A DNA stretch of 64,000 bases from a bacterium (GTDB lineage Bacteria; Bacteroidota; Ignavibacteria; UBA10030), in contig JAZDJN010000035.1 of NCBI GenBank assembly GCA_043803945.1, forward strand, positions 32,001 to 96,000, written 5' to 3'. The notes beneath the pieces were generated by a model. That model was not told where the DNA came from. It did not search any database and was given only the letters and a program-made list of their open reading frames with translations. Both the position numbers and the translations under genes were made by a program. Positions within the stretch are counted from its first letter, which is position 1. Every line of letters starts with the position of its first letter. Shown one piece after another: positions 960-60,667 of the stretch.

Positions 960-2291
960 TTATTGTAGTCGTTTCCCGTTCGATTTCTTTTGTGGACCGG
1001 CGACAACATTCGCCTTGACCCGGCCATCCTCGATCTCGATGCCTTTCCCTTTACCTACCTTCGTTACAAAGTATTGCGTGTCTGTATCCGCTGCCATCAT
1101 CCTTGAGAACTCAGCAAATGTCTCTTCATCCAGTTTCTCGACTCCATCGACACAGACAATGTTGAACTTACCATTCAATGATTTGGCAATAGCAAGACTG
1201 ACTTGCACTTGTTCCGCTCCACTGAGCATATCGAACGAACGGCCATCGATCAGAACTTCGTCTTCCGTTATTCTCATTCCGTTAACCGGCAAATGAATCC
1301 TCTCCATCAGCTTCACCGGAATATCACTCGTCAAGGCAGTGACATAACCGTCTAACGTCTGTGCTTCAGTCCTGAGTGTGGAATAGTCTGACCGCAGCTC
1401 TACAAGACGTGTCGCTGCTTCAGCGTGTCCTTTGACCGTCTCATATTCACTAATCTGCTTCTCCAAGCCTTTTACATCTATCGGAGCAAGAATTGCTAAC
1501 TCTGCGTTCGTAGATTCCAGTTCAATAGTCTTTGTTTTCAACTGTCTCGTTAGATTGGCAATCTCCGTTTCAATCCGACTAGCATCAGCGTTCAACGTGG
1601 CAATTCGATTATTCGTCCCTTCTGCAGATCGAACTGAAGCATACAGTTTGTGCAGCCCACGTTCATCGTATGACGACATGTCGAAATCTGAAGGAATCAA
1701 CCTAGCTTGTTCCTGACCGGCAGCTTTCTTCTTCTCCATGTCACGGTTAATTGTCGTCCTCTTGTCATAGAAATACTTTCGTAATTTCTCGACCAGCACA
1801 AGGGCATGACCGGCCAGATATTGTTCCGACACATCATCAGGCCATTCCTGTATGCCTAACCACTTCAACATCTCTTCTTTTGTTACCTCCAGCTTGAAAG
1901 ATTCTAACAAATACCCGATCTGCTTCTTTTTGTCAAGCAAGAAGAACTCGGCAGGATTGAAACTGAACCCGCCAATGAGACTATTCAAGTACTCCTGCGG
2001 TCTTTGGATCTGCTCACCTTCAGCACTGGCAACAACTAACTTCGTCCCTCCGTTGGAACGTATCGACCGCTGAACGAATAGTTCATCCAGCTCAATCAGT
2101 ATCTCTGCCGAATCTTCTCCTTGGCGGACTTTAGCAGATTGATCACCTGCCAAAAATGCCGCCTCTATTGCTCGAAGCAATGAGGTCTTCCCCTGGCGAT
2201 TCTTACCTGTGACCACATTCACTGCGCCGGTCTTGATATCGACTTCACGTAACCCCATGAAGTTGCGTATTTGCAACCTTATCATTTTCAT
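960..2291 (-). CDS. SbcC/Rad50/SMC-like ABC-type ATPase with short coiled coil
   Basis: Walker A GKNRQGKTS, signature LSGAEQ, Walker B/D-loop VCVDGVEKLD, central heptad region. Confidence 0.85.
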   Translation of the reverse strand: MKMIRLQIRNFMGLREVDIKTGAVNVVTGKNRQGKTSLLRAIEAAFLAGDQSAKVRQGEDSAEILIELDELFVQRSIRSNGGTKLVVASAEGEQIQRPQEYLNSLIGGFSFNPAEFFLLDKKKQIGYLLESFKLEVTKEEMLKWLGIQEWPDDVSEQYLAGHALVLVEKLRKYFYDKRTTINRDMEKKKAAGQEQARLIPSDFDMSSYDERGLHKLYASVRSAEGTNNRIATLNADASRIETEIANLTRQLKTKTIELESTNAELAILAPIDVKGLEKQISEYETVKGHAEAATRLVELRSDYSTLRTEAQTLDGYVTALTSDIPVKLMERIHLPVNGMRITEDEVLIDGRSFDMLSGAEQVQVSLAIAKSLNGKFNIVCVDGVEKLDEETFAEFSRMMAADTDTQYFVTKVGKGKGIEIEDGRVKANVVAGPQKKSNGKRLQ

Positions 2292-5400: not shown

Positions 5401-6102
5401 ATGATATTTTCTAATTCTTCAACTTTTTTTTCACCAGTTGTTGGTCAGGTGTTATGCGAAGAAAACGAAATCGTCAATGTCGCATAGCTAACAAAGTGGT
5501 TTTTAGTGTGATACCATTTTTCTACAATTCGTTCAACAGATTATCAAAATGGTGAAGTAGTGGTGAGGACTGTGAGATGGGAAGGAGCTCTGCTCCCGAC
5601 CAGTGCGAGTAGAACTCCCTCGGAACTGGAATGAGTGTGAGGTGTATGCTCTGAACCAGCTGAGCTTAAGCGTCCGGGAAAAGATGAATAGTGAATATCG
5701 AGTGTCGAACCGCAGAATGTCGAACTATACCACAGCCACTCCGGAATTCACTATTCCTTGTTTGCAGCTCGATATCGCACTCATTTCTTCTTGTCGCTGT
5801 GAGATGTCTTACTTCTTGCTGCTGGTAGGCTCATTTTCTTGCCGTTCACCCATGGGCCGCGGGGATTCGTCCTGAGCTGGTCGACAATCAACGCCTTCTC
5901 TGCCGCTTCACTAGGTGTAAGAGAAAAGCGGTTAATGGAATATGCCATGCCATTGCTCCATTCTTTGTTGAGTGAGTTGCTGATTCAAAGATACGAGCTA
6001 TTGTTCAGCAAAACAACTGGAGGATGGCGCTTCGCGAAGGAATCGAAATCGATATTGTCGCACAGCTCATCACAGGTCTATGTTTTAATAACTGATATCC
6101 TC

Positions 6103-6169
6103 AATTCATCCCTTTCATAACCGAATCCTTTAGATATTTCCTTAATTCATCCCTTCCATTACCGAATCC
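6103..6169. repeat. 26-bp direct repeat (2 mismatches, period 41) duplicating the 3' end of the 108-aa gene
   Basis: AATTCATCCCTTTCATAACCGAATCC / AATTCATCCCTTCCATTACCGAATCC. Confidence 0.8.
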
Positions 6170-6468
6170 CTCATAATATCACAGGTTCTTTTCTTCCAAA
6201 ATTTAATTGGTTTCAGATTGCACTGGTGTCTTAACGAATTCAGATTCTCTAGAGTCAAACCTGCATTTTCTCTGGATATCATCTTAAGTAGATATGTCGT
6301 GCCGCATTCTATACACATAAAATAGGAAAGCCCTTCTGCTACCTCTTCTTTCTCTAATTCGACTTCTTCTATCATTTCAGATGAATTACACTCGATGCAT
6401 TCGGCTGGATTACCGTTATTGGGTACCAGGCTTCTAAAAGGAGAATAGTATGATGGATTGGTCTGCAT
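6142..6468 (-). CDS. Zinc-ribbon hypothetical protein with a cassette-like start
   Basis: CIEC..CIEC; preceded by GTTATAC-AGAGAGG-ATG. Confidence 0.65.
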   Translation of the reverse strand: MQTNPSYYSPFRSLVPNNGNPAECIECNSSEMIEEVELEKEEVAEGLSYFMCIECGTTYLLKMISRENAGLTLENLNSLRHQCNLKPIKFWKKRTCDIMRDSVMEGMN

Positions 6469-6820
6469 ATTAACCTCTCTGTATAACGTTTGAAGACAGT
6501 GGCTTGGTCATCGTTTACAGAATATTTATTCGATTTTCAATGGTAGTAGGTCGTCTTTCTGTTAGCGAATATTTCCAGGATTGCTTTCCATAATGAACTT
6601 TGATAAGTTTGAATAAACACATATCACCAATCGAATTTGAGGGATTGTGAGGCGGGAAGAGAAGAAGGACCTCTGGATTAGCTTTGAGCGATGATTGAGT
6701 TAAGTATCTCGCGGGTGGAGTCGAAATACCCATTTCGGCTTTCAGTAAGTATTCATCTAACGGTGCGATGAAACTTATCTGCCCTCCCAGGGCAAGCCCG
6801 CGGGAGTTTATTTTCGCCAT

Positions 6821-6861
6821 CTCAGGTGTTTTTCCTACCAAACTCAGGTGTTTACCTGAGG
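6821..6861 (+). promoter_or_regulatory. Island-associated motif copy 1 (CAGGTGTTT x2, 22 bp apart; core TCAGGTGTTTACCTGA)
   Basis: Exact 16-mer at 6844-6859 shared with 34174-34189 and 62848-62863; function unknown. Confidence 0.75.
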
Positions 6862-7025
6862 CAAAATCAGTCAATTTTCGCTAATGACATACTTGAGTTA
6901 TTGATTCTCTTGGTAAACATCTCTACTATCCTGCTACCGTGCTGGGGATTCCGTAGGGAAGGATGAAGTGTACTTCCGAAGGAGTAAACTGTGCAACTCC
7001 TTAGAACGAAAAATACTTTGAATGA

Positions 7026-7139
7026 GACATTCGAACTGTCCAGGCGCTTCTGCACAGCGACGTCAAAACGACGATGATCTATGCCCATGTGTTCAATCGG
7101 GGACCGGCCGGAGTTCGCAGTCCCGTAGACGGACTCTGA
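7026..7139 (+). pseudogene. intI: Integron integrase C-terminal remnant (37 aa)
   Basis: Translates [37 protein letters not shown], the IntI box II/C-terminus; Gly of LLGH missing and in-frame TGA immediately upstream. Confidence 0.9.
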
Positions 7140-7165
7140 ACCCATGAAGGAAGATGTAATATACC

Positions 7166-7322
7166 GATCCGCATAAGCTGCCGTGATAAACCGCTGGACA
7201 GACAAAAAGTGATCGAAAACAAAGTGGTTAATATACCTTCAGCAAAAAATCCTAATGCATGTTTTATACACACAAACCAGAAACTCCGCATCTTATGCGG
7301 ATCAATCTAATTATTGTTATAC
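7166..7322 (+). other. attI-like region
   Basis: 12-bp inverted repeat GATCCGCATAAG (7166) / CTTATGCGGATC (7292) and core G/TTATAC at 7316-7322 where cassette 1 begins. Confidence 0.65.
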
Positions 7323-7442
7323 CGCTTGCGCATTTACAGAAGCTAGCTTTTCATTGCAGGACAGCTTTTATTGAATATTTAAATGTATCGACATGTAAAG
7401 AAATAACTGAATAAATCACTTTTACTACAGTCTCGTTAGCAT

Positions 7443-9095
7443 ATGAATATAAGAAAAGCTATCATCTCCAACTTTAAATGCTTTGAGGGAGACTTTTCAA
7501 TAGAGTTCAATAAGAACTTAAACATAATTGTTGGGATTAATGAGACTGGTAAATCAACCATTCTCGAGGCAATAAACCTTGCGCTTTCTGGTTGGATCTA
7601 TGGAAAGTACTTGGCAACTGAATTATCTCAATCCCTTTTCAATAGCAATACAGTTTCCAATTACTTGGACTCCGTTAATAAGGGTAATTCTGTTGAACCA
7701 CCAACAATTCTCATAGAACTATATTTCGACATCGAAGATGAATCTCTTAAGGCTGAATTCGAAGGAAATGGCAATAGCCGCAGAGAGGAAGCTTCAGGAA
7801 TTCAATTTAAGATATGCTTCAACGAACGATACAGAGACCAGTATCGCCTTTTAATTGAATCTAAGGAACCTATAAGCTCATTACCGATCGAATACTACGA
7901 TTTTGGTTGGTCAACATTCGCAAGAGATGAGACAATAACACCACGGGGGATCCCCTTCAAAGCTGCATTCATCGATTCCTCCAACACTCGACTTCAAAGT
8001 GGTTCCGATGTTTACATTTCACGAATCATTCGAGACTTTCTTTCCGAAGATTACAAGATTAAAATATCTCAAGCCCATAGAAAACTAAAAGATGTGTTCA
8101 TGGATTCTTCCTCTATCAAAGAAGTGAATAAGGAGCTCGAACAAAAACAACTTTCTGAGAAAAAGGTTGAATTGTCAATAGAAATGTCAACAAAGAACGC
8201 TTGGGAATCGAGCATAACGACGTCTTTGGACGATATTCCTTTTAGCAATATCGGAAAGGGCGAGCAATGCATGATCAAGACTAAGCTCGCGCTAAGCCAC
8301 AAGAAGGCCGTTGAAGCAAATATAATTCTACTAGAGGAGCCGGAAAATCATTTGGCACATGGCAAACTCAACGAACTCTTGAGCTTCATTAAAGAAAAGA
8401 GCCCGGAAAAGCAAGTCATAGTATCTACTCACAACAGCTTTGTCGCTAATAAACTTGGCCTTGATAACCTTATTCTCTTAAATATGGATTTAGCCACAAA
8501 GTTACGATTGCAGATTCGAATGAACGACTTGAGTGCGGAAACAAAGAGATACTTTGAAAAGCTGGCAGGCTATGATACCTTGCGGTTGATTCTGACTAGC
8601 TGTGCTATTTTGGTTGAAGGCCCATCAGACGAACTGATTGTTCAAAAGGCCTTTGCGAAACACAACAATGGGAAGCTTCCCATTGATAAAGGAATTGACG
8701 TCATCTCTGTGGGTACATCGTTTCTTAGGTTTCTAGAAATAGCCGACAAATTACGCAAACCTGTGCGGGTAGTTACTGACAACGACAGATCCTATGAGAT
8801 AAAGGTTAAGAAAAAATATAAACAATATGAGAATAGTAAAATTATCACTATTTATGCGGATAGCAATGACGATCTGAATACTTTGGAGCCACAGATCGTG
8901 CATGCAAACAAAGATCGATTGTCCGATCTGAGAACCGTACTCGGTATAGGCGAGGAAGAGTATCCTGATGAAAAGTCGATATCGGACTACATGCATGGCA
9001 ACAAGACCGAGTGCGCACTCAAGCTTTTCGAGTCTGAAAAGGATTTCATATTTCCGAATTACATACTTAGGGCAATAGGCGTGGACAATGCATAA
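7443..9095 (+). CDS. gajA: OLD-family ATP-dependent nuclease (ABC ATPase + TOPRIM), Gabija GajA-like
   Basis: GINETGKST, LLEEPENHL, STH, ILVEGPSDE, VTDND; paired with a UvrD-like gene. Confidence 0.85.
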   Translation: MNIRKAIISNFKCFEGDFSIEFNKNLNIIVGINETGKSTILEAINLALSGWIYGKYLATELSQSLFNSNTVSNYLDSVNKGNSVEPPTILIELYFDIEDESLKAEFEGNGNSRREEASGIQFKICFNERYRDQYRLLIESKEPISSLPIEYYDFGWSTFARDETITPRGIPFKAAFIDSSNTRLQSGSDVYISRIIRDFLSEDYKIKISQAHRKLKDVFMDSSSIKEVNKELEQKQLSEKKVELSIEMSTKNAWESSITTSLDDIPFSNIGKGEQCMIKTKLALSHKKAVEANIILLEEPENHLAHGKLNELLSFIKEKSPEKQVIVSTHNSFVANKLGLDNLILLNMDLATKLRLQIRMNDLSAETKRYFEKLAGYDTLRLILTSCAILVEGPSDELIVQKAFAKHNNGKLPIDKGIDVISVGTSFLRFLEIADKLRKPVRVVTDNDRSYEIKVKKKYKQYENSKIITIYADSNDDLNTLEPQIVHANKDRLSDLRTVLGIGEEEYPDEKSISDYMHGNKTECALKLFESEKDFIFPNYILRAIGVDNA

Positions 9096-10221
9096 AAACA
9101 CGTTAGTAATTGCCGCCGCTGGCTCTGGCAAGACGAGCTTTCTTGTAAATGAAGCTCGGAATATTAAGCACAAGAAAGTTCTAATTACAACCTATACTGA
9201 AGCAAACGAGGGAGAAATTATAAAAAAGTTCGCCGGCAGAATACCTGCAAACGTAACTATACAAACCTGGTTTTCTTTTCTACTCAAGCACGGTGTCAGA
9301 CCCTTTCAAAGTATTATGGATGACTCCCTACATCATGAAAAAATTGGTTTCTATTTGACAGAAAAGCAATCTGGGTTCAGATATAATACAACAAATGGAA
9401 AACCTGTGTATTGGGGGGAAAAAGATTTTATGAAGTTTTACTTCACCCGTGATTTCAGAATCTATTCAGATAAAATATCCAAGTTCATCATTGACTGCAA
9501 CAAGAAGTCAAATGGAGCCGTCATTAATAGAGTAAGTCGAGTATTTTCACATATTTTTGTTGACGAAGTACAAGATCTGGCTGGCTGGGAATTGGAATTG
9601 CTAAAATTGTTATTTACTTCAAGGTCCACTGTCCTCCTGGTTGGGGATCCAAGGCAAGTCACCTATTTGACTCACCATTCTCCTAAGTATGACAAGTATA
9701 GAGAAGGAATGATTAAAGACTTTGTAAGGACTGAATGCAACAAGCGAGAACAGATTTGCGAAATAGACGAACAAAGCCTTCTCTATTCACATAGGAACAA
9801 TGAATTCATCTGCGATTTCTCTTCAGCGTTGTTTCCTGAGCATGCCCCAAGTAAACCTTGCGATTGCAGGGAATGTCGTTCGTATAACTTCGATCATCAA
9901 GGCATCTTTGCCGTCAAGCCTGCTGATGCTGGTTCCTACTTCGAAAAGTATCACCCGCAGATACTGCGATATAACAAATCACAATTTCCTGATCTTAATT
10001 TTGGAATGTCAAAAGGTTTAGGCTTCGATAGCGTTCTTATTTATCCAACAGAAAAGATAGGGAAGTATTTAACCACCGGTGATCTTAAAAGTATTGAAAC
10101 AGTACGGGCTAAATTCTATGTCGCAATAACTCGAGCGAGACAAAGTGTCGGAATAGTCTGTGATTTCAATGATAACACTAAATTTATAAGGAGAATATCG
10201 AAATACATACGGAGCAATTAA
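9088..10221 (+). CDS. gajB: Short UvrD-like helicase, Gabija GajB-like
   Basis: AAAGSGKT, DEVQD, VGDPRQ, SKGLGFD, YVAITRAR; overlaps gajA stop. Confidence 0.85.
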   Translation: MHKNTLVIAAAGSGKTSFLVNEARNIKHKKVLITTYTEANEGEIIKKFAGRIPANVTIQTWFSFLLKHGVRPFQSIMDDSLHHEKIGFYLTEKQSGFRYNTTNGKPVYWGEKDFMKFYFTRDFRIYSDKISKFIIDCNKKSNGAVINRVSRVFSHIFVDEVQDLAGWELELLKLLFTSRSTVLLVGDPRQVTYLTHHSPKYDKYREGMIKDFVRTECNKREQICEIDEQSLLYSHRNNEFICDFSSALFPEHAPSKPCDCRECRSYNFDHQGIFAVKPADAGSYFEKYHPQILRYNKSQFPDLNFGMSKGLGFDSVLIYPTEKIGKYLTTGDLKSIETVRAKFYVAITRARQSVGIVCDFNDNTKFIRRISKYIRSN

Positions 10222-10385
10222 ATAAATCAGAATCCGGCTTTCAAAACGTTATACCATAACATTTGATGAATTCGATTTGGAGTTTTATAAGAGGCGTTAC
10301 TAATTGGAGAGATTAATTATATCAATCAATGTCAGTGGATGTATACTGTCTTCTCATTGAGCGATTCATAAAAAATATGCAAGCG

Positions 10386-10542
10386 GTATAATCCAGCGGC
10401 TCAAGCTGACCGAATGAGCGTGGGAGCATTTTGCATTGCGCTTAGAGGCTCAGTACAGAATTGAAAGTGAAGTGAATGAACTTGTTTCGTTTAGTACATT
10501 TTGGAAATTACCAGTGCGGCAGCTTAGCCGGCATCGTTAGGT
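10386..10542 (+). other. attC site 1 (Gabija cassette)
   Basis: R'' GTATAAT (one deviation), L boxes CGGCT-C-AAGCTG/CAGCTTAGCCG with extrahelical base, R' GTTAGGT. Confidence 0.85.
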
Positions 10543-10615
10543 TTTGCAGCTTTGCAGGATGTATTGTCGTAAACTATTCTGAAAACCAAGTCAAAGCAAC
10601 CTTGTAGGAATACTT

Positions 10616-11593
10616 ATGAAAGCGATTGTGTACACAAAATACGGATCACCGGATGTTCTTCAGCTCAAGGATGTAGAAAAACCAACGCCTGAAGACGATG
10701 AAGTTTTGATAAAAATTCGTGCGGCATCCGTAAATGCATATGACTGGCATTTCCTGACCGCTGACATATTCTTGATTCGCCTGATGGGCGGGGGGTTGCT
10801 CAAACCCAAAGACTCGAGACTCGGTGCGGATGTGGCGGGGCGGATTGAAACGGTTGGCAGAAACGTCAAGCAGTTTCAGCCGGGAGATGAGGTGTTTGGG
10901 ATGGTAAAGGGCGGTTTTGCCGAGTATGCATGTGCGCCTGAAAGCGCATTGGGGTTGAAGCCGGTCAATACTTCGTTCGATGAAGCAGCAGCGATACCTA
11001 TGGCGGCGATCACTGCCCTGCAGGGCCTGCGCGATGAGGGGCATATTCAGGCGGGGCAAAAGGTTTTGATCAATGGGGCATCAGGTGGGGTGGGGACTTT
11101 TGCGGTGCAGATTGCCAAATCGTTTGGCACCGAAGTCACAGCCGTGTGCAGCACGAGGAATTTGGAGCAGGCACGCTCGATTGGGGCAGACCATGTTATT
11201 GATTACACTAAAGAGGATTTCACCAAAAATGGTCAGCAGTATGATCTCGTTTTTGCGGCAAACGGCTATCATTCGCTTTCAGATTATAAGCGCGCCTTGA
11301 CTCCCAAGGGCATTTATGTGATGGCCGGAGGTACCATGGCTCAAATCTTCCAATCCATGCTCATGGGTTCAATGATGTCAGAAACCGGCGGCAGGAAAAT
11401 GGGAGGCGTAAGCGCAAAACGAAGCCAAAACGACCTGGTTTTTATAAAAGAACTTTTTGAAGCAGGCAAAGTAAAATCCGTTATTGATAGACGGTATCCG
11501 TTAAGTGAGGCTGCTGAAGCGCTTCGGTATCTTGGAGAAGGACATGCCCGAGGAAAAATAGTTATCACTATGAAGTATAATAGTAAAACCTAA
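10616..11593 (+). CDS. NAD(P)-dependent MDR-family alcohol dehydrogenase / quinone oxidoreductase-like (cassette 2)
   Basis: MKAIVYTKYGSPDVL, GADVAG, LINGASGGVG, GHARGKIVI; stop codon lies inside R'' of attC2. Confidence 0.9.
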   Translation: MKAIVYTKYGSPDVLQLKDVEKPTPEDDEVLIKIRAASVNAYDWHFLTADIFLIRLMGGGLLKPKDSRLGADVAGRIETVGRNVKQFQPGDEVFGMVKGGFAEYACAPESALGLKPVNTSFDEAAAIPMAAITALQGLRDEGHIQAGQKVLINGASGGVGTFAVQIAKSFGTEVTAVCSTRNLEQARSIGADHVIDYTKEDFTKNGQQYDLVFAANGYHSLSDYKRALTPKGIYVMAGGTMAQIFQSMLMGSMMSETGGRKMGGVSAKRSQNDLVFIKELFEAGKVKSVIDRRYPLSEAAEALRYLGEGHARGKIVITMKYNSKT

Positions 11594-11718
11594 CAACCGC
11601 GTGCAGCCGACTTGCGCTACGCGCTTGTGGTACAGGCGTGGTTGTGGTCACAACTTGTTAGGTTAGCTTGCTTGTTTTTGTTGGAAGCCGCGTAAGCGGC
11701 TCATGCGGGCCGTTAGGT
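11588..11718 (+). other. attC site 2
   Basis: ACCTAAC...CCGCGTG-C-AGCCG / CGGCTCATGCGG...GTTAGGT; AAAACCTAA complements cassette start TTAGGTTTT. Confidence 0.9.
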
Positions 11719-11763
11719 GGTTTAAAATTATTACACAATCATCACATCTATAAGGAGAAATAA

Positions 11764-11958
11764 ATGGCAAAATGTCCGTATTGTAAACAAGCGCTCACTT
11801 TGGAAAAAACCAAAAGAGAATCATCAGAATTCACCGAAGAAGTACATAAAGATGTTTCTGGCGTAGTTAAAAAAGAAATTATGTATTCGTGCCCACACTG
11901 TGAATCCGTTCTAGGTTTCGGTTTTTTCATAGGCGGTCTCCTAACTGGTAGACCTTAA
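11764..11958 (+). CDS. Small zinc-ribbon protein (cassette 3)
   Basis: CPYC..CPHC; AAGGAG RBS; lies between attC2 and attC3. Confidence 0.8.
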   Translation: MAKCPYCKQALTLEKTKRESSEFTEEVHKDVSGVVKKEIMYSCPHCESVLGFGFFIGGLLTGRP

Positions 11959-11996
11959 GTCGTTCGTCGTCATACTTACAAGCTTATCGGCAAACC

Positions 11997-12134
11997 GCCT
12001 AACCAAGCTACTGACGGAATGAGCTCGCTGCAAAATTCATGGCGAGCATAGTTGCGGTACACATATTAAAGTTATCAGTGCGGCAGTCCCGAATAAAAAC
12101 ATTTCGGGATAAACTTTAACCGCCATCCTTAAGA
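11997..12134 (+). other. attC site 3 (degenerate)
   Basis: R'' GCCTAAC; AAACCGCCTAA complements cassette start TTAGGTGGTTT; R' eroded to CTTAAGA. Confidence 0.6.
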
Positions 12135-12197
12135 ACCGTTCATTGGAGCAGCGGTATTAAACGAAAAACCCGCTTTTCAGCGGCCTTCCATTGGGAA

Positions 12198-12425
12198 TCA
12201 AGCGTGTATGCGTGCTTTTGCCCATTGCAATGCAGGCTTCTTTCGCTGATCTGCACAATCGCGCAGAAATAGGTTGATGAGTTTCTGGTATGGCAAATCG
12301 GTTTCTGCTGCAATTTTTTTGAAATAGTCTAATGTATCGTTTTCTATCCGAATAGTGATTTGGGTTTTTAGTCTCTTAGCGTATGGATTTCGGACGGCGT
12401 TGGTAAAATCGTAGTTTTTTCTCAT
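12198..12425 (-). CDS. brnA: BrnA-family antitoxin
   Basis: YDF..A.RNPYAKRLK.QITIR...LDYFK......PYQ.LIN..LR pattern; overlaps toxin stop. Confidence 0.85.
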   Translation of the reverse strand: MRKNYDFTNAVRNPYAKRLKTQITIRIENDTLDYFKKIAAETDLPYQKLINLFLRDCADQRKKPALQWAKARIHA

Positions 12426-12733
12426 AGTTCTCTCCTATACTTGTACTGCATCGCTTCCTGACGGTTGGCTTTGCGAGCAGAGTAAATTCGTATAATTTCA
12501 AAGCCGTCTTTATCTTCACGGTAGCAATGGCAAACAATGAGAAGCTTTGCTTGATTGCTCAATCCAAGAAGAATAAATTTGTCTTCATCTTCAGAGTGAT
12601 CGGGATCATAAATGAGTAGAGCAGAATCATCGAAAAAGCACGTTTTTGCTTCCTCGAAAGAGACCTTATGTTTTCGCCGGTTTAGCGAATTCTTTGCTTC
12701 ATCCCAAGCAAACTGAATATTATTCATTGACAA
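12422..12733 (-). CDS. brnT: BrnT-family ribonuclease toxin
   Basis: FAWDEAKN..N.RKH.VSFEEA...F.D...DPDHS..E...IIRIYSARKA. Confidence 0.9.
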   Translation of the reverse strand: MSMNNIQFAWDEAKNSLNRRKHKVSFEEAKTCFFDDSALLIYDPDHSEDEDKFILLGLSNQAKLLIVCHCYREDKDGFEIIRIYSARKANRQEAMQYKYRREL

Positions 12734-12754
12734 AATATAATTATATTATAATTA
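12734..12754 (-). promoter_or_regulatory. TA promoter/operator
   Basis: Palindrome AATATAATTATATT overlapping TATAAT boxes directly upstream of brnT. Confidence 0.55.
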
Positions 12755-12767
12755 CAAATCAAACGGT

Positions 12768-12928
12768 TTCTAACAATTCACTCAACCTGCCGGCGCGGCA
12801 TGCACGCACTCGCTTGTCTAGGCAATCAGCAGTTTAGAAATGCATTTTGCAAATTGACAGCAGTTCAGTATCATGGGCGAATCGCGCGCGCATTGACACC
12901 GCGCCGCAGGTTAGCTCCGCCGTTATGT
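12768..12928 (+). other. attC site 4 (TA cassette)
   Basis: TTCTAAC...CT-C-AACCTGC / GCAGGTTAG...GTTATGT. Confidence 0.85.
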
Positions 12929-13070
12929 AACGCCGATGACTTTTCTGAGATCATACAGCAGGCAGGATTTCTTTTCGCTACTTTCAAGAGAAAGTTCTGA
13001 AACACTTTTATCATTTCCATGACATTCGTACCTTTTCTATTTGTCCGAAGTCATCGTGTCGAAATCTATA

Positions 13071-13888
13071 CTATTCCCCAGAGTGCTTTTCAAGCTCACC
13101 TTCAACCTCATCTATCGCTGCCTCCCAGGCTTCCCAACCAGTTGCTACCATCTGATCGACAACCTTTTCTGAGTGCTGAATAACTAACTCTACATTCTCT
13201 TTCAATGGTCGATACCCTCGCTGTTCCAACAGCGATTCGATATCAACATCCGTCCAACTTGTTTCAGCGAATATTCTCTCTGGTTCTTTTCGAGAGATGA
13301 ACTTGTCACGGACAACACCAACATATCGTTGGCTACCGTGTGTGGCAAGGTCATCTCCAGGCGCACAGTGCCTTCACACTCAACCCTGCATCGAATATTT
13401 AGGGATCGTTCGCTATCGTAGAACTCGAACTTATCTTCTTTGAGAGTTTCTCCGACGATATTGGCAAGTTCACTCCCAATCCGTTCCTGTTCTTCTTTAC
13501 GGGCCAGCATGTCCTGACGATTTTTCATTGACTCATCATAGACAGCCTCATACAAAGGCATAAACCTTGAAACGATTTGTGTACACAATCTCTGCGGGTC
13601 CTGTTCGAACGATGGCTCAAACATCGGAATTTTATCAGAACCTATCTCGTAACCACCCATGTCTTTGGGAAACTCGCCACGAATAGACAAGTGCTTCTTC
13701 CCTGCCCATCGCTTACAGTTCACGATCATCCCATTTGTTTTGTGGACGAGTTTGAATCCATACACTACGTCATTATCAGTCATGCCCTCACAGATCCACA
13801 TCTTCCCGTCTTTTCGCATCGATTGGAACAGTGTGAACAACGCGCTGACTCGTCGCCTTGCTTCCTCAGGTGTAATGTCTTTGCTCAT
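13071..13888 (-). pseudogene. Hypothetical phage gene with apparent 1-bp frameshift near 13310
   Basis: ORF track 13202..13888; an alternative frame continues RDKFISRKEPERIFAETSW...ELEKHSGE*. Confidence 0.55.
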
Positions 13889-27695: not shown

Positions 27696-30600
27696 CTACT
27701 TTCCAAACACATTATGTGTGAGAATACTATTCAATGAATATGTGTTCGGACCAACAAGTGAAATCATGTCTAGTGCTTCCGCCCATTCAATACTCTTTGG
27801 AAGAAATTCTTTTGCTTCTCCCAGATCCAAAAGTTGCTCCAACTCAGTTATGGCGATGTTTTCCCCACCATATTCTGCCATAGTGCTTATGATTCCCCTT
27901 GGAGTTTCAGTGATCTCTGAAAAGCCAAACATTTTATCAAGTTCCATTCTGTTAGCAGAAATCCATTCCTTCAATTTCCCACAGCACTCTTTCGAAACGA
28001 AAGTCTCCCCTTTTGTTAACTCTTGGAACTTCTTAAGTAGAGCATAAAGTTGACCTGTAATCGATTTTATCTCATTTCGTTCTTCTATTTGAAGAGCGTA
28101 GACTTCGTCATCAAGCCAATGTTTAATCGCCGATTCATTCCACCTTCTCAATGATATAACATCAAGGCTTGCTCCCCTCAGTTCGATCCACTGACTCCAC
28201 TCCTGATTAAGAATTCCCCAGAGGTGATCCGGCTCTGCTATAAACACAAAACGCAGAAAGGAGCCCCAGTTCCCAATTATGCGGATCTTCTCCTGGGCAA
28301 TTTTTATCCACTCCAGGCTCCATGGAATTTCATAGCCGATAACATAGATAGCGACACTATCTCTCGCAATTGACTTTATTTCATCAATGAATTTTCTGAA
28401 TTGAGCAACTGATTGAACTTGATCAATCATATTCACATTTGAAAAAACCCGTCCTTTAAGAAATTCGGGGAGATCATCCAGTCCATTAGCTCTGTTACCG
28501 GCAATAAGGGTTACTCCATCTTTGTTCGAAGTGATCGTGCTCAATTGGCCAACAGTCAATGGACTTCTGAACTCTCTCGCACCGGCAGGCTTGAACGCAA
28601 TACGAAAATGCGCTGGTTCATATCCTAGTTCTACTTCGCGTCGCTCTAGCAGCTTTGACGTAATTTTCTCTTCACTTCCCATCAGTCTGTAAACGTTTTG
28701 GTTTCTCAGTAGATACCCTTCAGCAGGTGTGGCTTGCAATACACCCAGACCGATCATTTCCTCTACCAGAATTTTGATTGACTCGAGCGAAGAATGTTCC
28801 TTGAATCCTTCAGGATAGAAACAAGTTGCCTGTTGCCTGATCCAATCCAGGGTGAATCCCGAGCTCATACCTAGCTCAGGATTATCCGCATACCCCTGGG
28901 CTATACTATATGCAATAACTTCATACTTGTTGTCAAGTTGAAGGGTCCAAATGAACCTGTCACTGATTTGATTTCGCAGACTGGTATTCTGAAAGGCGTC
29001 TGTGACATGTCTGCTTTCTATGATATATGGTGGACACTTTTTAGTATCGAATGGAATCTTCCTGATGTGCTGCAGCAACTGTGTGCAATATAGTTGAATA
29101 AGGCTGGGATAATAATTTGTCTGAGATAATATCCTCATTATGAGATCACTGCTACTGAACTTGTAACCAATCGCTCTCAGAGGGATTTCTACTAACTTTC
29201 TCGCTTCTATCCATTCATCATTTGAGAATAGGGGTCCGATGCAGTGAGGTTCCCCAAAGTGTGCCAGTGGATGGTTAGCCAGCGTTGTTGTTCTCAAGAC
29301 ATTGTGAAGCCCGGCGAAAACCACCTTGAATCTTCTGCTGGTATTATCCATTAGGCCCTTTAATCGCGAGGTGTAGATGAATTCTCCGGATGATTTTCCG
29401 GACTCCCGGCTTCCTTTGCCATCGATTTCCAGAAAAATGTCTGCTTCATCAAGCAGAAGTAAAATCCTCCTGTCGGTACGATCATTTAGCCATTCTTGTA
29501 TATTTTCTAGCAGGTTTTTTAATCCTGTGTTTCTTTGTACTTTTGTTGAAATGACCTGGTATTTCTTAAATTCTTCCACCAGTACTTCCCACAAATGGTC
29601 TATCGGCTGAGCCGTACCAATACCGAGGACTTTGAGATCAACATAGAGGGCAATCATACCACTTGAAGGATTGTGGAAAGTTCTCTCGATCGAGCGCAAT
29701 AGAGCTGTTTTTCCGAGCTGACGACCCCCATAGATAAAACACGATCCATGAGGATTTACGATCGCTTCGAGTTCCCTTTTTCGCCCATAGAAGATCTCAG
29801 GCGGAACAAGGCCTGCAGTTGTGGTATATGGCTCAAGATCGGTTAAAGGCAGAGTACAATCGAAGAACACTGGAAGCCTGTCACCTTTCACTGTACACAA
29901 ATAAAGAATTACTATATCATCGATGACAATATACGTTCTTCTCCCTGACCGGCTCTCCTCCGCAAGTTCCCTTCTGCGTAGTTCAGACATTCTTCCAAAC
30001 CAAAATATTATAACAGGGCCCCCGCTTCCTGCAGTTGCGACATCATTAGAGAGAATATCTGCTGTTTGGTAATTCCAGAAACAAAGAACACGGTATCTTC
30101 CATTTGCTGCAGACCCATACTGATAAGCGGGGCAACGGTTTCGGTCATTAACTGCTTCGGCCTCAGCAGCGAAGATATCCTTATTGACAACCCTCCGTTT
30201 TTCGACATTTGCAATATTTAGTCCAATCCCTTTCAGCACGTCAGACACATGGTCAACAGTTGCGAAACGGGAATTCTTCATTTCGAGCCACGCTTCAAGG
30301 AGGTTGCGTGCATCTTTTCTTTGACTCGAGGACACTCCTTCAAAGGATAATGGCCCAATATTTTCACCCCGCTCAACCAACCTAAGAAGCTTATTTCCAT
30401 TCAGTGCATCCTTTTCCAGGAATCCGTGCAGTTCGGCAATCATGGATAACATGGTTTCAAAATGAGTTTGACTGGCTTTTTCATCCGGGATAGCCTCTCC
30501 GTTTGCTGCCCTGTTTACAAAATCTTCTGCAGTAATAAGGTCACCATCTTGTAGTAATTTACTGATACGAGAAAAGCCATCACTATCAGACTTAATACCG

Positions 30601-33600
30601 ATGTCACTCATCCTTTTAATGAGACGTTCTCTTGCCTTATTTTTTTGTGTGTCGATCGTGCTTTCAATTCCATCGAGCTGTTGTATGGCTTCGGACAAAT
30701 CTTCTTTATGCTTTGAAGCTTCCGCAATAGAGTGAATATCGCGTTTGAACGAATCGTATTGATCTCCGCGGATAATATTTAATGCCATCGCATCTTCAAT
30801 TTTTGCGACGGTTCTTGTCCTTACAATTTCTTGTATAAGCATCCGGGACTTGGTGATTTCTTCATCTCGTTTTCTTCGAAGCCCTTCAGAATCAACACCC
30901 TGAATATGGAGGAATTCGACGGCATCTATCACATTACCGGAAATTGTGTGTGCATGGTCTCTTGTAGCTTGCTCGAAGGCTCTCACCCAGTCTTCTGTTC
31001 CTTCTTTTATAAGTTGCAAGAGTTTTATCAGAATCCCTTTATCATATCCCTGAACAGGTTCCCAATCAGCATTGAGAGGTAACCCTGCCAGAAGTAATTC
31101 CCCATTAAGAATCCATCGGATATAGGGCTCTTCTGGGATAAAAGGCTTGGAAGGATCGAATATTGACTTAATGTCCTCGATTGCGGAGATGGTAAGGTCA
31201 ACAGCAGATCTGGTAATTCTGGAATCAGATCCATGCTTAAACTTGGATAGTTCATCAATGCAGGGAGTACACAGATCACCCAATTCACGCTTTAATTTGT
31301 CAATTTTTTCATCAATAAATCCCCGTTGTTTCCCTGGTCTGAAATCGATAAGCCCCACCCATATTCTCGCCATTGTCGATAGATCTCTGAGATGTCTTTG
31401 GATTTGATTTGAAGCTCTCTGCACTATTGATCCACTGGAATGCACCATCGTGATGGCAGCAAAATGAGTATCGATTTCCCGCCCCAGCCATCGCTCATTT
31501 ACTAAGTCAATCGAAAAATCTTTCACAATATCAAGATGATCAAAAGCATTGTTTTCAATCGCTTCAACTATTTGATAAACTCTGTTACCTCTCTGCAACA
31601 TTCGTTTCCATGTCTTTACTCCGGGAGAGGTCACTATACCGAAACTTTGAGCTTGCTTATACCATTGCTTGACTTTGTTCCTGATATCTTCAAGTTCTTC
31701 ACGCCACTTTGTTTGATCTTTTGCGATTTTTATTACTTGTGGTTCAAGCGCAATTCCCAGGTAACCCCATTCAGCTATCCTCTGTGAAATGGTATGCAAT
31801 ATGCTTAATTGGCTGTACGATAGTTGGCTTAGAATCGCCTGAGCTCCTGTAACTGGTGCCAGCAGAGATGGGCGCAGACATGAACTTCCCCACATCAGGT
31901 TCAACGCTATTCGTGTCTTGTCGTCTTCAGCTTCAGGAAGATCTGGATTGAAATTTTCATATTCTTGCTTAAGTAATGAGGCGATATTTCCCTGGTTTGA
32001 TCCTGTATAAGGGGCAAGCAGAATCGCTTTGAAGAGAGAGGCTGATAAGGCACTGGAATTAGTTGGGAGAATCATCGCACATTGATATGCAATCCTGAAT
32101 TTTCCCTCTCCCACAAGTGCCCAGAGTAATTCGTCCAACAAACTATCTTCCGCTGCTGTGTGGTTCGGAGAGAGCATTTGTTCAGCGATTAAGGCAGAGC
32201 TTCGGTTATCGGCTCTTTTAACTTTTAATGCCTCAACGGGTTCCGGAGATTCCTGTGCCCTTATTTCCGACTTCTTTGAAGGCTTCGATTTAATTTCAGG
32301 TACGGGTGTCTTATCAGGAGCCCGATCCTCAATCGCCTGGACCTGATCTTCAATAACATTATTGGTGATCTCTCTCGGAATCTGTACAACTGTTACCGCG
32401 TCTTCTGTTTTTCTTTGATGAGAAAAGTCTCGGATCGCCGGGAGTTCAGGAAATACTATTTGATCTGGTCCTTGTTCAGCAATGACCATTCTATCCATCA
32501 TAGCAACTTCAGCGCATTCTTCTCCAAACTCTTTAGCAATCACTATTTTGAGTGCTTTACACTCATGGAATCCCAGGATTTTCTTCTCTTTGACAAGACG
32601 TATGAGACTTAAGTATGGATGCGATCCATCTACAATGCTGTTCACAATCACTTGTAAGTTGCTTGTATTTCCACTTTTAATTTCTGCCTCAAGTGTCACG
32701 ATTTTTTTCACGACCTCTTTCAGAGGTGCAAATTCAATATCAACAGTGTTTCGCAGCAAATGAAATGTTGAGAGCAATTTAAGCGCGTCAAGTCTGGTTT
32801 TCTCAAACTCAACTTCCGCCATCCTGTTTTTCCCACGTTCAAACAATAGGGCCAGATCGGCTGGAGTTTTTGCTGACAGGATCCTTTCTTTTATTTCATC
32901 ATCTACTGATGCTGAGATATCTTGCTTAATTTCCTCAAACAGTTTCAAATAACCGGATGCTAATTCCTGTAAAGCTTTAATTTCATCAGCGCTTGCTTCA
33001 CCAGCAGGCAGGGCATTTGAAATATTTATTAAATTCTTCTTTGCCAGATCTATCTTTTCCTCTACCGACTGAGCTTGTTGTGACTCCTTTTTATCATCGC
33101 CATCTTTGCCTGCTTTGTCATTAGTCAACCTGATCGGGCCCTCTTCAGCAATACTCTCCCGATCATCACCTGCTATTTCGGTAATCCCCTCTTGTTCATA
33201 ATTTACACCTTCTCCCCCGCCTTTATCATTAAACCAGCCTAAAAGAAGTGACATTAACGTGACTTCTGATTCGTCTTCCCCTTCGATAGGTTTTCCGCCT
33301 GGCCTGAAGTGCCACAATTCAGTCTCTCCCTCCTGGCATAGATCAGTATCGTTAAGAGACTTCCAAACAATCGGAGAAATTACCTTCCGAACTGAATACC
33401 CCCTTTCTTTCAGGGCTGCCTCAACTTTCAATCTTAGATTTTTCTTCACCTCCATCCACAAAGCGAGAATCCAGTTACCAAGCTGAGCATCCTCAACTAC
33501 CCTTTGTTCCATAAATTGAATTACTCTCAGCTTTGGCACCTTTCGGGCATGTGAGAATCCCGGGAAGTACCGGGAGATCCTGTCCTTATGGAGAGCCAAT

Positions 33601-33713
33601 GTCTGTGCTTGATCATATTCTACAACTGCTTTGATAATTTGGCGCAGTTTTGTCCGCGGATAAGATTCGAGAGGATTAAAGAGGTTGTCGGGGTACTGGT
33701 TATGACTTGCCAT
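27696..33713 (-). CDS. 2005-aa STAND-like P-loop NTPase with long helical N-terminal region
   Basis: PY...FYGRKREL, Walker A YGGRQLGKT, Walker B LLLLDEAD, YYPSLIQ; second degenerate P-loop LIAGNRANG. Confidence 0.85.
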   Translation of the reverse strand: MASHNQYPDNLFNPLESYPRTKLRQIIKAVVEYDQAQTLALHKDRISRYFPGFSHARKVPKLRVIQFMEQRVVEDAQLGNWILALWMEVKKNLRLKVEAALKERGYSVRKVISPIVWKSLNDTDLCQEGETELWHFRPGGKPIEGEDESEVTLMSLLLGWFNDKGGGEGVNYEQEGITEIAGDDRESIAEEGPIRLTNDKAGKDGDDKKESQQAQSVEEKIDLAKKNLINISNALPAGEASADEIKALQELASGYLKLFEEIKQDISASVDDEIKERILSAKTPADLALLFERGKNRMAEVEFEKTRLDALKLLSTFHLLRNTVDIEFAPLKEVVKKIVTLEAEIKSGNTSNLQVIVNSIVDGSHPYLSLIRLVKEKKILGFHECKALKIVIAKEFGEECAEVAMMDRMVIAEQGPDQIVFPELPAIRDFSHQRKTEDAVTVVQIPREITNNVIEDQVQAIEDRAPDKTPVPEIKSKPSKKSEIRAQESPEPVEALKVKRADNRSSALIAEQMLSPNHTAAEDSLLDELLWALVGEGKFRIAYQCAMILPTNSSALSASLFKAILLAPYTGSNQGNIASLLKQEYENFNPDLPEAEDDKTRIALNLMWGSSCLRPSLLAPVTGAQAILSQLSYSQLSILHTISQRIAEWGYLGIALEPQVIKIAKDQTKWREELEDIRNKVKQWYKQAQSFGIVTSPGVKTWKRMLQRGNRVYQIVEAIENNAFDHLDIVKDFSIDLVNERWLGREIDTHFAAITMVHSSGSIVQRASNQIQRHLRDLSTMARIWVGLIDFRPGKQRGFIDEKIDKLKRELGDLCTPCIDELSKFKHGSDSRITRSAVDLTISAIEDIKSIFDPSKPFIPEEPYIRWILNGELLLAGLPLNADWEPVQGYDKGILIKLLQLIKEGTEDWVRAFEQATRDHAHTISGNVIDAVEFLHIQGVDSEGLRRKRDEEITKSRMLIQEIVRTRTVAKIEDAMALNIIRGDQYDSFKRDIHSIAEASKHKEDLSEAIQQLDGIESTIDTQKNKARERLIKRMSDIGIKSDSDGFSRISKLLQDGDLITAEDFVNRAANGEAIPDEKASQTHFETMLSMIAELHGFLEKDALNGNKLLRLVERGENIGPLSFEGVSSSQRKDARNLLEAWLEMKNSRFATVDHVSDVLKGIGLNIANVEKRRVVNKDIFAAEAEAVNDRNRCPAYQYGSAANGRYRVLCFWNYQTADILSNDVATAGSGGPVIIFWFGRMSELRRRELAEESRSGRRTYIVIDDIVILYLCTVKGDRLPVFFDCTLPLTDLEPYTTTAGLVPPEIFYGRKRELEAIVNPHGSCFIYGGRQLGKTALLRSIERTFHNPSSGMIALYVDLKVLGIGTAQPIDHLWEVLVEEFKKYQVISTKVQRNTGLKNLLENIQEWLNDRTDRRILLLLDEADIFLEIDGKGSRESGKSSGEFIYTSRLKGLMDNTSRRFKVVFAGLHNVLRTTTLANHPLAHFGEPHCIGPLFSNDEWIEARKLVEIPLRAIGYKFSSSDLIMRILSQTNYYPSLIQLYCTQLLQHIRKIPFDTKKCPPYIIESRHVTDAFQNTSLRNQISDRFIWTLQLDNKYEVIAYSIAQGYADNPELGMSSGFTLDWIRQQATCFYPEGFKEHSSLESIKILVEEMIGLGVLQATPAEGYLLRNQNVYRLMGSEEKITSKLLERREVELGYEPAHFRIAFKPAGAREFRSPLTVGQLSTITSNKDGVTLIAGNRANGLDDLPEFLKGRVFSNVNMIDQVQSVAQFRKFIDEIKSIARDSVAIYVIGYEIPWSLEWIKIAQEKIRIIGNWGSFLRFVFIAEPDHLWGILNQEWSQWIELRGASLDVISLRRWNESAIKHWLDDEVYALQIEERNEIKSITGQLYALLKKFQELTKGETFVSKECCGKLKEWISANRMELDKMFGFSEITETPRGIISTMAEYGGENIAITELEQLLDLGEAKEFLPKSIEWAEALDMISLVGPNTYSLNSILTHNVFGK

Positions 33714-34171
33714 ATAGCTTGAACTCCCATAAATGAAAGAAAGACGTGATATCTTTCTTTCGCTAATGTGACCTTATCTTAATCGCGTTATAATGATCTT
33801 GCAAAAAAAAAAAGAACTGATGAAAGGTTTTACCTTTATCTGTCGAATACCGGTTACTCTAACAAGCTTATCCCTGACAACTGCAATAATGAAATATGGA
33901 TATTGCCTATTTGTAAAGAAAAATACTTCGCTTATTGGCTCAAAAACAAAAAAACCTCCTTCATCGCATTCGCGAATCCAAAGGTTTCAATTTCTCTTTC
34001 TTGGAAGATATAAGGAGCGCCACGGTTTACTCCTTCGGAAGCACACTTAATCCTCCTCCACGGAATGCCCCAGCACGGTAATTAAGATTTGACTGTTGGC
34101 AAGAAGGTATAGATGTTTGCTAATGAAAACAATAGCAAGAATGTGCAATTGGCGATAATGAGCTAAATTTA

Positions 34172-34213
34172 CCTCAGGTAAACACCTGAAAATGGCATGG
34201 AAAACACCTTAGG
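34172..34213 (-). promoter_or_regulatory. Island-associated motif copy 2
   Basis: TCAGGTAAACACCTGA at 34174-34189, second AAACACCT 22 bp away. Confidence 0.75.
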
Positions 34214-34256
34214 TGTGATTTTTCATTGTCCACGAGATACAGAATAAATTTGACAG

Positions 34257-55229: not shown

Positions 55230-55278
55230 GCTAAATACACACACTCTCTCTGTATATATATAGAAACCATCTTATTGA

Positions 55279-56451: not shown

Positions 56452-56467
56452 TTCATTTTCCTCCGCG

Positions 56468-57214: not shown

Positions 57215-57247
57215 CTCCAGATAGTAGTTTCTTTGAATGAATTACCA

Positions 57248-60535: not shown

Positions 60536-60575
60536 TTGAAAATAGATCCCACTTAAGGTATCTTGTAAATAAAAA

Positions 60576-60667
60576 GCCCTCAGTGCCCTTGATCAGGGCT
60601 GAACTATCACTCTCTTGGCGGGGAGTATTTTTCATCCTGTCATGAAATTGTTGACAGGACTGGGGGC
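60576..60667 (-). promoter_or_regulatory. Structured leader / attenuator-like element
   Basis: Closing stem GCCCTCAGT/ACTGGGGGC enclosing three hairpins, followed by TTTTT on the minus strand. Confidence 0.45.

Follow-up and report, generated by a model that had tools for sequence, protein, structure and literature searches.

Organization of the locus

The window, a stretch of 64,000 nucleotides that corresponds to positions 32001-96000 of contig C35 in a bacterial metagenome-assembled genome (MAG), features an integron fragment at positions 7026-12928. The fragment consists of the 3' end of an integron integrase gene (intI), an attI recombination site and an array of four gene cassettes. It is very probably a truncated integron of the inverted-integrase type that lies in a variable spot of a contractile-tail phage of at least 122 kb. 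An original prediction, made from the letters of the sequence alone, had described a 37-residue IntI C-terminus at 7026, an attI-like core at 7316, four cassettes behind it and a co-oriented intI with attI at its 3' end, all of them carried by a phage, and each of these features is borne out by the comparisons described below. The cores, given as the position of the G of GTT, lie at 7316, 10536, 11712, 12128 and 12922, and every cassette is bounded by an attC site. The coordinates of all features are collected in Table 1.

The intI remnant and the inverted layout

The reading frame of the intI remnant opens at 7026 behind an in-frame stop codon, has no start codon and ends with the stop codon at 7137-7139. 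Scored alone, the 37-mer matches the IntI profile TIGR02249 with 50.7 bits (E 1.6e-13) over model positions 278-315 of 315, and a profile search of the whole MAG finds the stub with the same model at positions 277-315. A second IntI model gives 36.2 bits and the XerC/XerD-type models give 19-21 bits, the best non-IntI tyrosine recombinase reaching 21.3 bits. Because the IntI models outscore the XerC/XerD-type models, the stub is specific to IntI and does not represent a generic tyrosine recombinase. The alternative that it belongs to a Xer-like integrase of the phage was rejected on this score and on the homology to a full-length relative from the metagenome locus L085, of which IntI residues 315-352 align to the stub with 82% identity in tblastn searches. 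The stub is one residue shorter than its relatives (ALL-HSD). A complete integron features a full-length IntI with an IntI-specific additional domain; in the window only the residues that match TIGR02249 278-315 are present, and tblastn with the L085 IntI revealed no further piece of intI between positions 3001 and 11320. A back-translated pattern of 11 residues of the stub had no match in metagenomes.

The full-length relative also confirms the layout of the locus. The L085 IntI is encoded by a 352-aa frame that scores 492 bits with TIGR02249 (cut-off 265), it is co-oriented with the array, and its gene stops 178 nt before the same attI core. The genomes G196 and G371 feature the same layout. 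In the window both the stub and the array are on the plus strand with attI located 3' of intI, which is the arrangement of the inverted-integrase group. The members of this group described by Cury et al. in 2016 (PMC4889954), which include Treponema, are chromosomal in that account, and in contrast to them the attI family described here is multi-copy.

The attI site

The attI region was delimited by alignment of the window with 80 metagenome loci (L026-L105), which were fetched among at least 119 exact matches of the 22-mer at 7297-7318 in JGI metagenome contigs. This 22-mer ends in the core GTT. In 80 of 80 loci the 45-60 or more nucleotides upstream are conserved and the sequence changes immediately 3' of GTT, and the 40 nt downstream of the core fall into 77 groups at 80% identity, that is, 77 distinct first-cassette starts. 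Additionally, 17 contigs from the sequencing run X1 (Logan contigs, which derive from relatives only) match the window up to 7318/7319 and then differ. By this comparison position 7316 is shown to be a genuine recombination point of a widespread attI family, and the divergence of 80/80 loci after GTT identifies it as the cassette-receiving attI that adjoins intI in a complete integron. The heptamers at the core of the 80 loci include GTTAGGC, GTTCGGC and GTTAGGT, and the strict GTTRRRY consensus is found in 29 of them. The conserved 22-mer was also considered as the 3' half of a conserved attC site, which was rejected since no complementary 5' arm is located upstream.

Members of the family feature three TTATGCGGAT-like boxes and a core that reads ...ATCTAATTATT G/TT, in which the slash marks the crossover. 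Where the whole intergenic region survives, three related boxes (TTATGCCGATCC..., TTATNCGGAC and CTTATGCGGATC) are found between the intI stop codon and the core, a layout that we take to be the architecture expected of integrase-binding repeats in attI by comparison with attI1. The distance from the intI stop codon to the core is ~177 nt in the window and 166-183 nt in loci with intI or its remnants. No description of this attI family was found in the literature searched.

At least 15 of the 80 loci (for example L043, L047, L060, L070, L093 and L099) feature a small open reading frame (ORF) that spans the whole attI region. It has a GGAGG ribosome-binding site and an ATG in box 1, and its product terminates in ...ILCGSI*, with 8 nt left to the core. 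Since the central part of the peptide lacks conservation, the frame may be incidental, and it is closed in the window.

The attC sites and the cassette boundaries

A complete integron or a CALIN (an attC cluster lacking an integron integrase) contains at least two attC sites, and four were found in the array, one of them with a degenerate R' core. The sites are long (130-160 nt), with lengths of 156, 130, 137 and 160 nt. The original prediction had also claimed that the first bases of each cassette are complementary to the left end of its own attC, which holds and is specific. The first 13 nt of the cassettes are complementary to the R'' end of their own attC at 13/13, 10/13, 10/13 and 10/13 positions, as opposed to 3-9/13 in the same test against the three non-own attC sites. 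The same 13-nt complementarity between the start of the first cassette and a downstream site was found in 6 of 68 metagenome loci, with 0 in the control, and this extended complementarity is therefore special to the attC family of the host and not a general feature.

The attC3 site of the window ends in ...CCGCCATCC/TTAAGAA, and the corresponding copy on the host contig C104 ends in ...CCGCCATCCG/TTATACC. The two sites share an exact match of 51 nt, and the C104 site ends in ...CCATCCGTTATACC. Because the host copy keeps the G of its core, R' of attC3 has lost it, and the R' core that had been given as GTT is corrected to CTTAAGA.

A scan of the 64-kb window for R''/R' hairpins determined that attC4 (-20.7 kcal/mol) and attC2 (-20.0 kcal/mol) are the best sites, and these two attC sites account for the top three energies of the scan. 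The next unrelated site has -14.2 kcal/mol, and the best sites in two mononucleotide shuffles have -16.8 and -11.3 kcal/mol; a stricter attC motif found attC2 only. This heuristic scan is insensitive, in that it misses attC1 and attC3, and when it was applied to 41 loci it returned 26 matches in 108 kb downstream of attI versus 5 in 58 kb upstream, which is an enrichment of only ~2.8-fold.

The cassette cargo

Cassette 1 is by its profile matches a complete Gabija anti-phage system, in which gajA and gajB overlap by 8 nt. In a set of one genome per species the relatives of GajA match at only 52-55% and belong to other phyla, and none of those examined is found in an integron context. The protein of cassette 2 scores 176 bits with TIGR02824, which is under the cut-off of that model, and a paralogue that is 70% identical adjoins an attC-like site on the host contig C93. 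The small protein of cassette 3 has weak zinc-ribbon matches, all below cut-offs. Cassette 4 features the gene order of a BrnT/BrnA type II toxin-antitoxin system, a gene for a BrnT ribonuclease toxin followed by one for a BrnA/CopG antitoxin, as recognized by profile, and a promoter-like site is located on the minus strand at 12772-12745 (consensus match only).

A second GTTATAC is found within cassette 1 at 10248-10254, 27 nt after the gajB stop codon, where the sequence is complementary to attC1 at 7/13 positions. It is probably due to chance or the scar of an older boundary.

Table 1. Coordinates of the features of the integron fragment and of repeat B in the window.
Feature	Position	Strand	Description and evidence
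Repeat B	6800..7025	+	Dispersed repeat of ~230 bp; adjoins the truncated end of intI and is directed into the array; nhmmer, alignment
intI remnant	7026..7139	+	Last 37 codons and stop; TIGR02249 profile, tblastn
attI region	7140..7322	+	Alignment of 80 metagenome loci and the window
attI box 1	~7158-7177		TATACCGATCCGCATAAG
attI box 2	~7262-7273		Degenerate; TTATACACAC in the window versus TTATNNGG in relatives
Palindrome	7286-7300		CCGCATCTTATGCGG
attI core	7316-7322		GTTATAC, crossover after G7316
Cassette 1	7317..10536	+	3220 bp; two-gene Gabija system; PADLOC, Pfam
gajA	7443-9095	+	PADLOC GajA 668.1 bits, residues 1-545 of 550; Pfam AAA_15 and OLD-like TOPRIM
gajB	9088-10221	+	PADLOC GajB 434.9 bits, residues 3-363 of 377; Pfam UvrD helicase
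attC1	10386..10542	+	R'' GTATAAT, R' GTTAGGT; fold with an L''/L' stem with two bulged bases
Cassette 2	10537..11712	+	1176 bp; zinc-type quinone oxidoreductase, ORF 10616-11593; Pfam ADH_zinc_N_2, ADH_N
attC2	11588..11718	+	R'' ACCTAAC, R' GTTAGGT; stem with bulged bases (fold)
Cassette 3	11713..12128	+	416 bp; 64-aa CxxC zinc-ribbon protein, ORF 11764-11958
attC3	11997..12134	+	R'' GCCTAAC, R' degenerate CTTAAGA
Cassette 4	12129..12922	-	794 bp; BrnT/BrnA toxin-antitoxin pair; Pfam
brnA	12198-12425	-	BrnA_antitoxin PF14384 28.1 bits, CopG_antitoxin PF12441 28.6 bits, both just above cut-offs
brnT	12422-12733	-	BrnT_toxin PF04365 91.6 bits
attC4	12768..12928	+	Array end; R'' TTCTAAC, R' GTTATGT; inner stem 12780-12916 (-20.7 kcal/mol); fold
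Repeat B, second phage copy	34007-34215	-	Upstream of the 2005-aa ORF

The phage and the left edge of the fragment

Contig C35 is 122,323 bp long and myovirus-like throughout. Nearly all of its genes are on the minus strand, the integron island is on the opposite strand, and phage genes flank the island on both sides. The window encodes the terminase large subunit, GP4-type fibre and adaptor proteins, a tail-fibre-like protein, a DNA ligase, a methylase, RadC and two giant ORFs. The rest of the contig contributes a tail sheath, a tube-like protein, a tape measure, a baseplate wedge, a neck protein and a MuF/portal-like protein, as well as an SNF2 helicase, a sliding clamp, a DnaC-like loader, a ParB-like nuclease and a lytic transglycosylase. 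The GC skew of the island differs from that of its flanks. In run X1 the contigs with ~90-94% identity to the flanks match the window up to 6135 and again from 13073 on, and no contig of that run bridges 6136-13072, which suggests that a variable insertion spot of the phage spans ~6136-13072. Short-sided joints in the X1 data (for example 7319>10396 and 6804>10480) were left out of use. The exact attI 22-mer and a 19-mer had 0 matches in IMG/VR, so the location in a phage is unusual for this attI family.

At its left end the stub reads ...gagac followed directly by ATTCGAAC, and the sequence that abuts this truncation point is repeat B. The repeat has the consensus TTGAYT-17-TACNTT followed by a nested hairpin (GCUGG..CAUUCC..GGAAG-loop-CUUCC..GGAGU), and the copy next to the stub features a promoter-like TTGATT-17-TACTAT ahead of the conserved hairpin. 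By nhmmer and alignment at least 11 good copies are present in the MAG, upstream of unrelated and mostly accessory genes, and these include the copy at 34007-34215 of the window; the other contigs that carry them are C4, C15, C25, C81, C99 (three copies), C103 and C114. Searches of Rfam gave no match over the window at the gathering threshold and none over 6000-13500 at E values up to 1, which places repeat B, attI and attC outside the curated RNA families. Speculatively, repeat B may now drive the cassettes, and it may, as a further speculation, have mediated the capture of the module.

Two further regions of the phage are unusual. The giant ORFs lie on the minus strand at 27696-33713 (2005 aa, a weak AAA_22 match only) and at 34843-48114 (4423 aa, no Pfam or PHROG match), and the longer one has a GC content of ~50% versus ~44% in its flanks and a strong AT skew. 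The region 54125-62472, between the tail-fibre-like genes and the terminase gene, contains an IS-type transposase gene (rve_3, plus strand), an FG-GAP protein gene and three genes for secreted proteins: one with TPR, one with Por_Secre_tail (type IX secretion sorting) and one encoding a 1095-aa InlB-repeat/fn3 protein. This region looks like a second block of host-like cargo.

Relation to the integrons of the host

An nhmmer search seeded with attC1 revealed a family of 11 sites, which comprises attC1 itself, the 5' half of attC3 and nine sites on the host contigs C37, C41, C52, C93, C104, C108 and C117. One of the host members adjoins a host intI. The match of attC3 to this family has an E value of 5.4e-15, and two of the four attC sites, attC1 and attC3, are thereby shown at the level of sequence to belong to the chromosomal attC family of the MAG. 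The host-type attC model together with the cassette-start motif TTATACCGCTTGCG recurs on host contigs including C37, C104, C41 and C52, and it had 0 matches in 136 other loci (429 kb) that were fetched through the attI core or around its matches. The 51-nt match between attC3 (12068-12118) and C104 is the longest exact repeat between the island and the rest of the genome; the others are at most 28 nt.

The MAG contains inverted integrons of its own. N-terminal halves of intI are located at the ends of contigs C45 and C70 and are 94.75% identical to each other. Contig C41 features the middle and C-terminal part of intI with the IntI-specific segment KYPNA...WRWQWVFP, followed by an attI (...TAATTAATA G/TTAGGC), a cassette and an attC. 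No second copy of 7026-7316 is present in the MAG. A comparison of the locus with intI, attI and attC of the host, as suggested with the original prediction, showed the following: attC1 and attC3 are in the host family, no host intI is above the cut-off, and the attI of C41 is of a different type. The island is, by its sequence relationships, a mosaic in which a widespread attI is joined to attC sites of the family of the host MAG exactly at the crossover. Since a host-type attC is joined exactly at the attI core, we infer that attI x attC recombination within this lineage brought the cassettes to the platform.

Two other observations were made on the host contigs. An insert of ~295 bp (L017, ~1712-2006, minus strand) interrupts the intI of C41 between ...TFRHS and FATHLLE.... 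It features terminal inverted repeats GCCCGTGAGAT and ATCTCACGGGC and an ORF of ~85 aa that looks like a small GIY-YIG protein, and it seems to be a very small mobile element located where intI is most conserved. Contig C20 carries an orphan attI-like core at 10365-10390 (TCAATCTAATTATTGTT/AGG) ~120 nt after the gene for a 1010-aa sensor (histidine) kinase. It is followed by a 118-aa ORF, and no intI is nearby.

Origin and state of the phage-borne fragment

The features of the locus fit a course of events in which a platform that was already without most of intI would have been supplied with cassettes in the host lineage through attI x attC recombination, and the module would then have entered the phage by illegitimate or repeat-mediated recombination beside a dispersed host repeat. 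Copies of attI with a truncated intI or no intI are the common state in bacteria, and the truncation therefore probably preceded the capture. The proposal that the phage captured the front of a chromosomal integron is thus likely in outline, with the qualifications that the attI type differs from that of C41 and that intI was probably truncated beforehand. After capture the phage itself would be unable to recombine cassettes. The cores on either side of cassettes 1 and 2 are intact, and these two cassettes could still be excised by an IntI acting in trans, which could also insert cassettes at attI, probably with reduced efficiency; cassettes 3 and 4 would be locked together by the CTT junction. 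The cargo would work independently of recombination: transcription would enter from the promoter-like element in repeat B at 6890-6930, Gabija would protect the infected or lysogenic cell against competing phages, and BrnTA would stabilise the array. The original prediction also held that a host IntI could keep loading cassettes at the retained attI. Such loading in trans is plausible because the 22-nt attI core is intact and cassette 1 is joined exactly there with an attC of the host family.

Several observations weigh against this account. With regard to recombination, 0 of 20 TIGR02249 matches in the MAG are above the cut-off, so that no intact host IntI is demonstrable; the GG of attI box 2, which is kept in 63 of the 79 loci judged, is missing in the window; and attC3 has CTT instead of GTT at 12128. 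These three points also count against loading in trans. With regard to origin, the attI of the window differs from that of the host integron on C41, and the attC assignments rest on the criteria described here and not on the covariance model of IntegronFinder. With regard to the phage, no major capsid protein, genome termini (no end overlap) or phage integrase were identified on the contig. A search of IMG/VR with three flanking proteins gave a single match of 31% identity and no close relative, and no relatives of the phage backbone from which an empty site could be read were found by INPHARED blastn or among 60 related genomes. The sole sequencing run found, X1 (share 0.08), contains relatives and not this sequence, and provides no reads that support the junctions. 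With regard to a Pc promoter, which drives the cassettes of a complete integron, a scan for sigma-70 promoters found 10 sites versus 14.9 in shuffles and hence no excess, and the promoter-like element of repeat B upstream is a candidate only.

The first alternative is that the array is a fully inert fossil, kept in the phage only by selection on Gabija and/or BrnTA; it is the less probable reading but a serious one. No intact IntI was found in the MAG, and this result, the degenerate box 2, the CTT of attC3 and an intI remnant that is without a start codon and one residue all agree with it, and toxin-antitoxin cassettes stabilise arrays according to Qi et al. in 2023 (PMC9892861). However, loci with a full IntI (L085) have exactly this 22-nt core and palindrome, and attC1, attC2 and attC4 keep their cores and stems. 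Recent exchange is also indicated by the 51 nt shared exactly with a host array. Additionally, the assembly of the MAG is interrupted within its intI genes, and an intact copy may therefore have been missed.

Orphan and multi-copy attI sites

The attI family is found mostly without an integrase. Among the 42 metagenome loci with at least 1300 nt upstream of attI, 1 features a full intI, 7 feature remnants or internally deleted genes and 34 are without intI homology. The other 38 loci comprise 3 that reach the contig end inside intI, 6 with remnants, 17 in which 300-1137 nt of upstream sequence contain none and 12 that are too short for a judgement. A separate set of twelve loci on long contigs have housekeeping or accessory bacterial genes around attI and no phage structural genes, and one of them, L073, has a family-B DNA polymerase upstream. 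In 401 sampled genomes of the phylum the 22-mer (at most 1 mismatch) is carried by 36, with 0 for the reversed-pattern control, and 34 of the 36 carriers are among 87 genomes of one family (2-3-Mb genomes), in which up to 6-7 copies are found per genome. Five multi-copy genomes were analyzed together with the metagenome loci (G154, G371, G117, G196 and G219), and 3 of the 5 encode one full IntI. The 22 attI sites in 17 loci of the family genomes comprise 1 with a full intI, 5 with remnants and 16 with none, and some copies are spaced at 1.4-10 kb in clusters of one orientation, in which every copy is accompanied by a very short intI stub. No description of widespread orphan or multi-copy attI sites in environmental integrons was found in the literature searched.

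One member of the family features an intron. An ORF-less group II intron is inserted in the attI region of L157 (G154:C31, ~8757-9560), between box 2 and the core palindrome, with Rfam matches of 106 bits to group-II-D1D4-7 and 54.5 bits to Intron_gpII.

The abundance of such copies bears on a second alternative, in which the fragment reached the phage as a self-spreading unit of truncated intI, attI and cassettes and not by chance capture. In this scheme IntI would cut at a pseudo-core located within the 3' part of its own gene (ATTCGAAC/GTTCGAAC, codons ..D-I-R-T..) or at another place upstream of attI, a second cut would be made at a downstream attC, and the attI-carrying circle released in this way would re-insert elsewhere, including in a phage. 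The scheme is unlikely as an account of the fragment. It is favoured by the number of attI copies per genome and their co-oriented clusters with stubs, and by the excess of orphan and truncated copies over full ones in both sets of loci (1/7/34 of 42 and 1/5/16 of 22). Three independent contexts (the window, L084 and L058/L145) share TTCGAAC as the start of the stub, and the TT has a G before it in L084 and L036. A subfamily of ~11 loci features GTTAGGC ~95 nt upstream of the core after an attC-like sequence. Delta-attI-type cassettes are reported as functional in clinical class 1 and 2 integrons (PMC12901181), and insertion into genomes at attG sites is reported in a preprint by Loot et al. 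In the window, however, TTCGAAC is preceded by an A, and repeat B, not an att site, forms the flank, and the truncation points are otherwise scattered (L085 IntI residues 187, 265, 296, 298, 304, 306 and 328). Neither circular forms nor a target-site signature were seen, the same picture could arise from ordinary decay by deletion together with horizontal transfer, and the exact 22-mer and 19-mer are absent from IMG/VR. The broader suggestion that the intI 3' stub and attI platform is itself a dispersing unit, the copies of which are followed by different cassettes and one of which reached the phage, is put forward only tentatively.

A misplacement of the island or of the whole contig by assembly or binning is highly improbable. 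It would be favoured by the chromosome-shared repeats located in or beside the island (repeat B and the 51-nt match within attC3) and by the MAG-like nature of the 118-contig assembly. However, no exact repeat other than the 51-mer exceeds 28 nt, phage genes continue on both sides so that an artefact would call for two independent mis-joins, and the second copy of repeat B in the phage ties the phage to the host lineage.

Comparison with known systems

The locus has partial counterparts among published systems. That integrons are rare in phages, as had been stated at the outset, agrees with the counts given by Qi et al. in 2023 (PMC9892861), whose 10,705 phage genomes contained 3 complete integrons, 1 In0 and 17 CALINs. 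The same study described Vibrio phages that captured parts of the chromosomal integron of their host. Phage-borne integron fragments are thus already published, and the window is a further example. The closest likeness is to the temperate Vibrio anguillarum phages Va_90-11-286_p16 and PF430-3_p42 of that study, which are functional and carry a piece of the sedentary chromosomal integron of their host, with host-type attC cassettes and a toxin-antitoxin cassette. As described there, these phages feature an intact intIA in the usual divergent orientation, whereas the window retains 37 codons of intI in the inverted layout, the host is uncultured, the attI type is unlike that of the host integron and the first cassette is Gabija.

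With at least two attC sites and no working integrase, the locus resembles CALINs (PMC4889954), including those described in the virulent phages TJE1, P12002L and PH101 (PMC9892861). An intI pseudogene was reported near 15 of 279 CALINs by Cury et al. in 2016 (PMC4889954), and the window is like these 15 in that respect. In contrast to CALINs, in which attI is usually unrecognisable when they are environmental, the locus keeps an attI that can be verified by comparison. Delta-attI-type cassettes (PMC12901181) are similar in that attI is located away from intI, inside arrays, and can act as a cassette boundary; they are reported with experimental proof from class 1 and 2 resistance integrons, whereas the evidence here is purely comparative and comes from environmental genomes and a phage. 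Defence systems packaged as integron cassettes have also been described (bioRxiv 10.1101/2024.07.02.601719). The anti-phage cassettes in that account are plasmid-borne and mobile, and the one in the window is a two-gene Gabija cassette of 3.2 kb in a phage. What is new here is the context, namely a widespread, mostly orphan and multi-copy attI and its mosaic with attC sites of the host family.

Significance

The locus is a clean and well-delimited case of a phage in which the docking site of an integron is combined with cassettes for defence and addiction from the pool of its host. It links two known routes of gene flow, integron cassettes on the one hand and phage transduction or lysogenic conversion on the other, in a little-studied lineage. 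The attI site can be recognized by comparison, which is rarely possible for environmental integrons, and two questions that the locus raises are therefore directly testable: whether attI can work without a neighbouring intI, and why orphan, multi-copy attI sites are so common in these bacteria. If the platform is indeed a dispersing unit, orphan attI sites would be portable landing pads that are served in trans by a single or visiting IntI, and phages could ferry such a pad and its cargo, here Gabija, between hosts.

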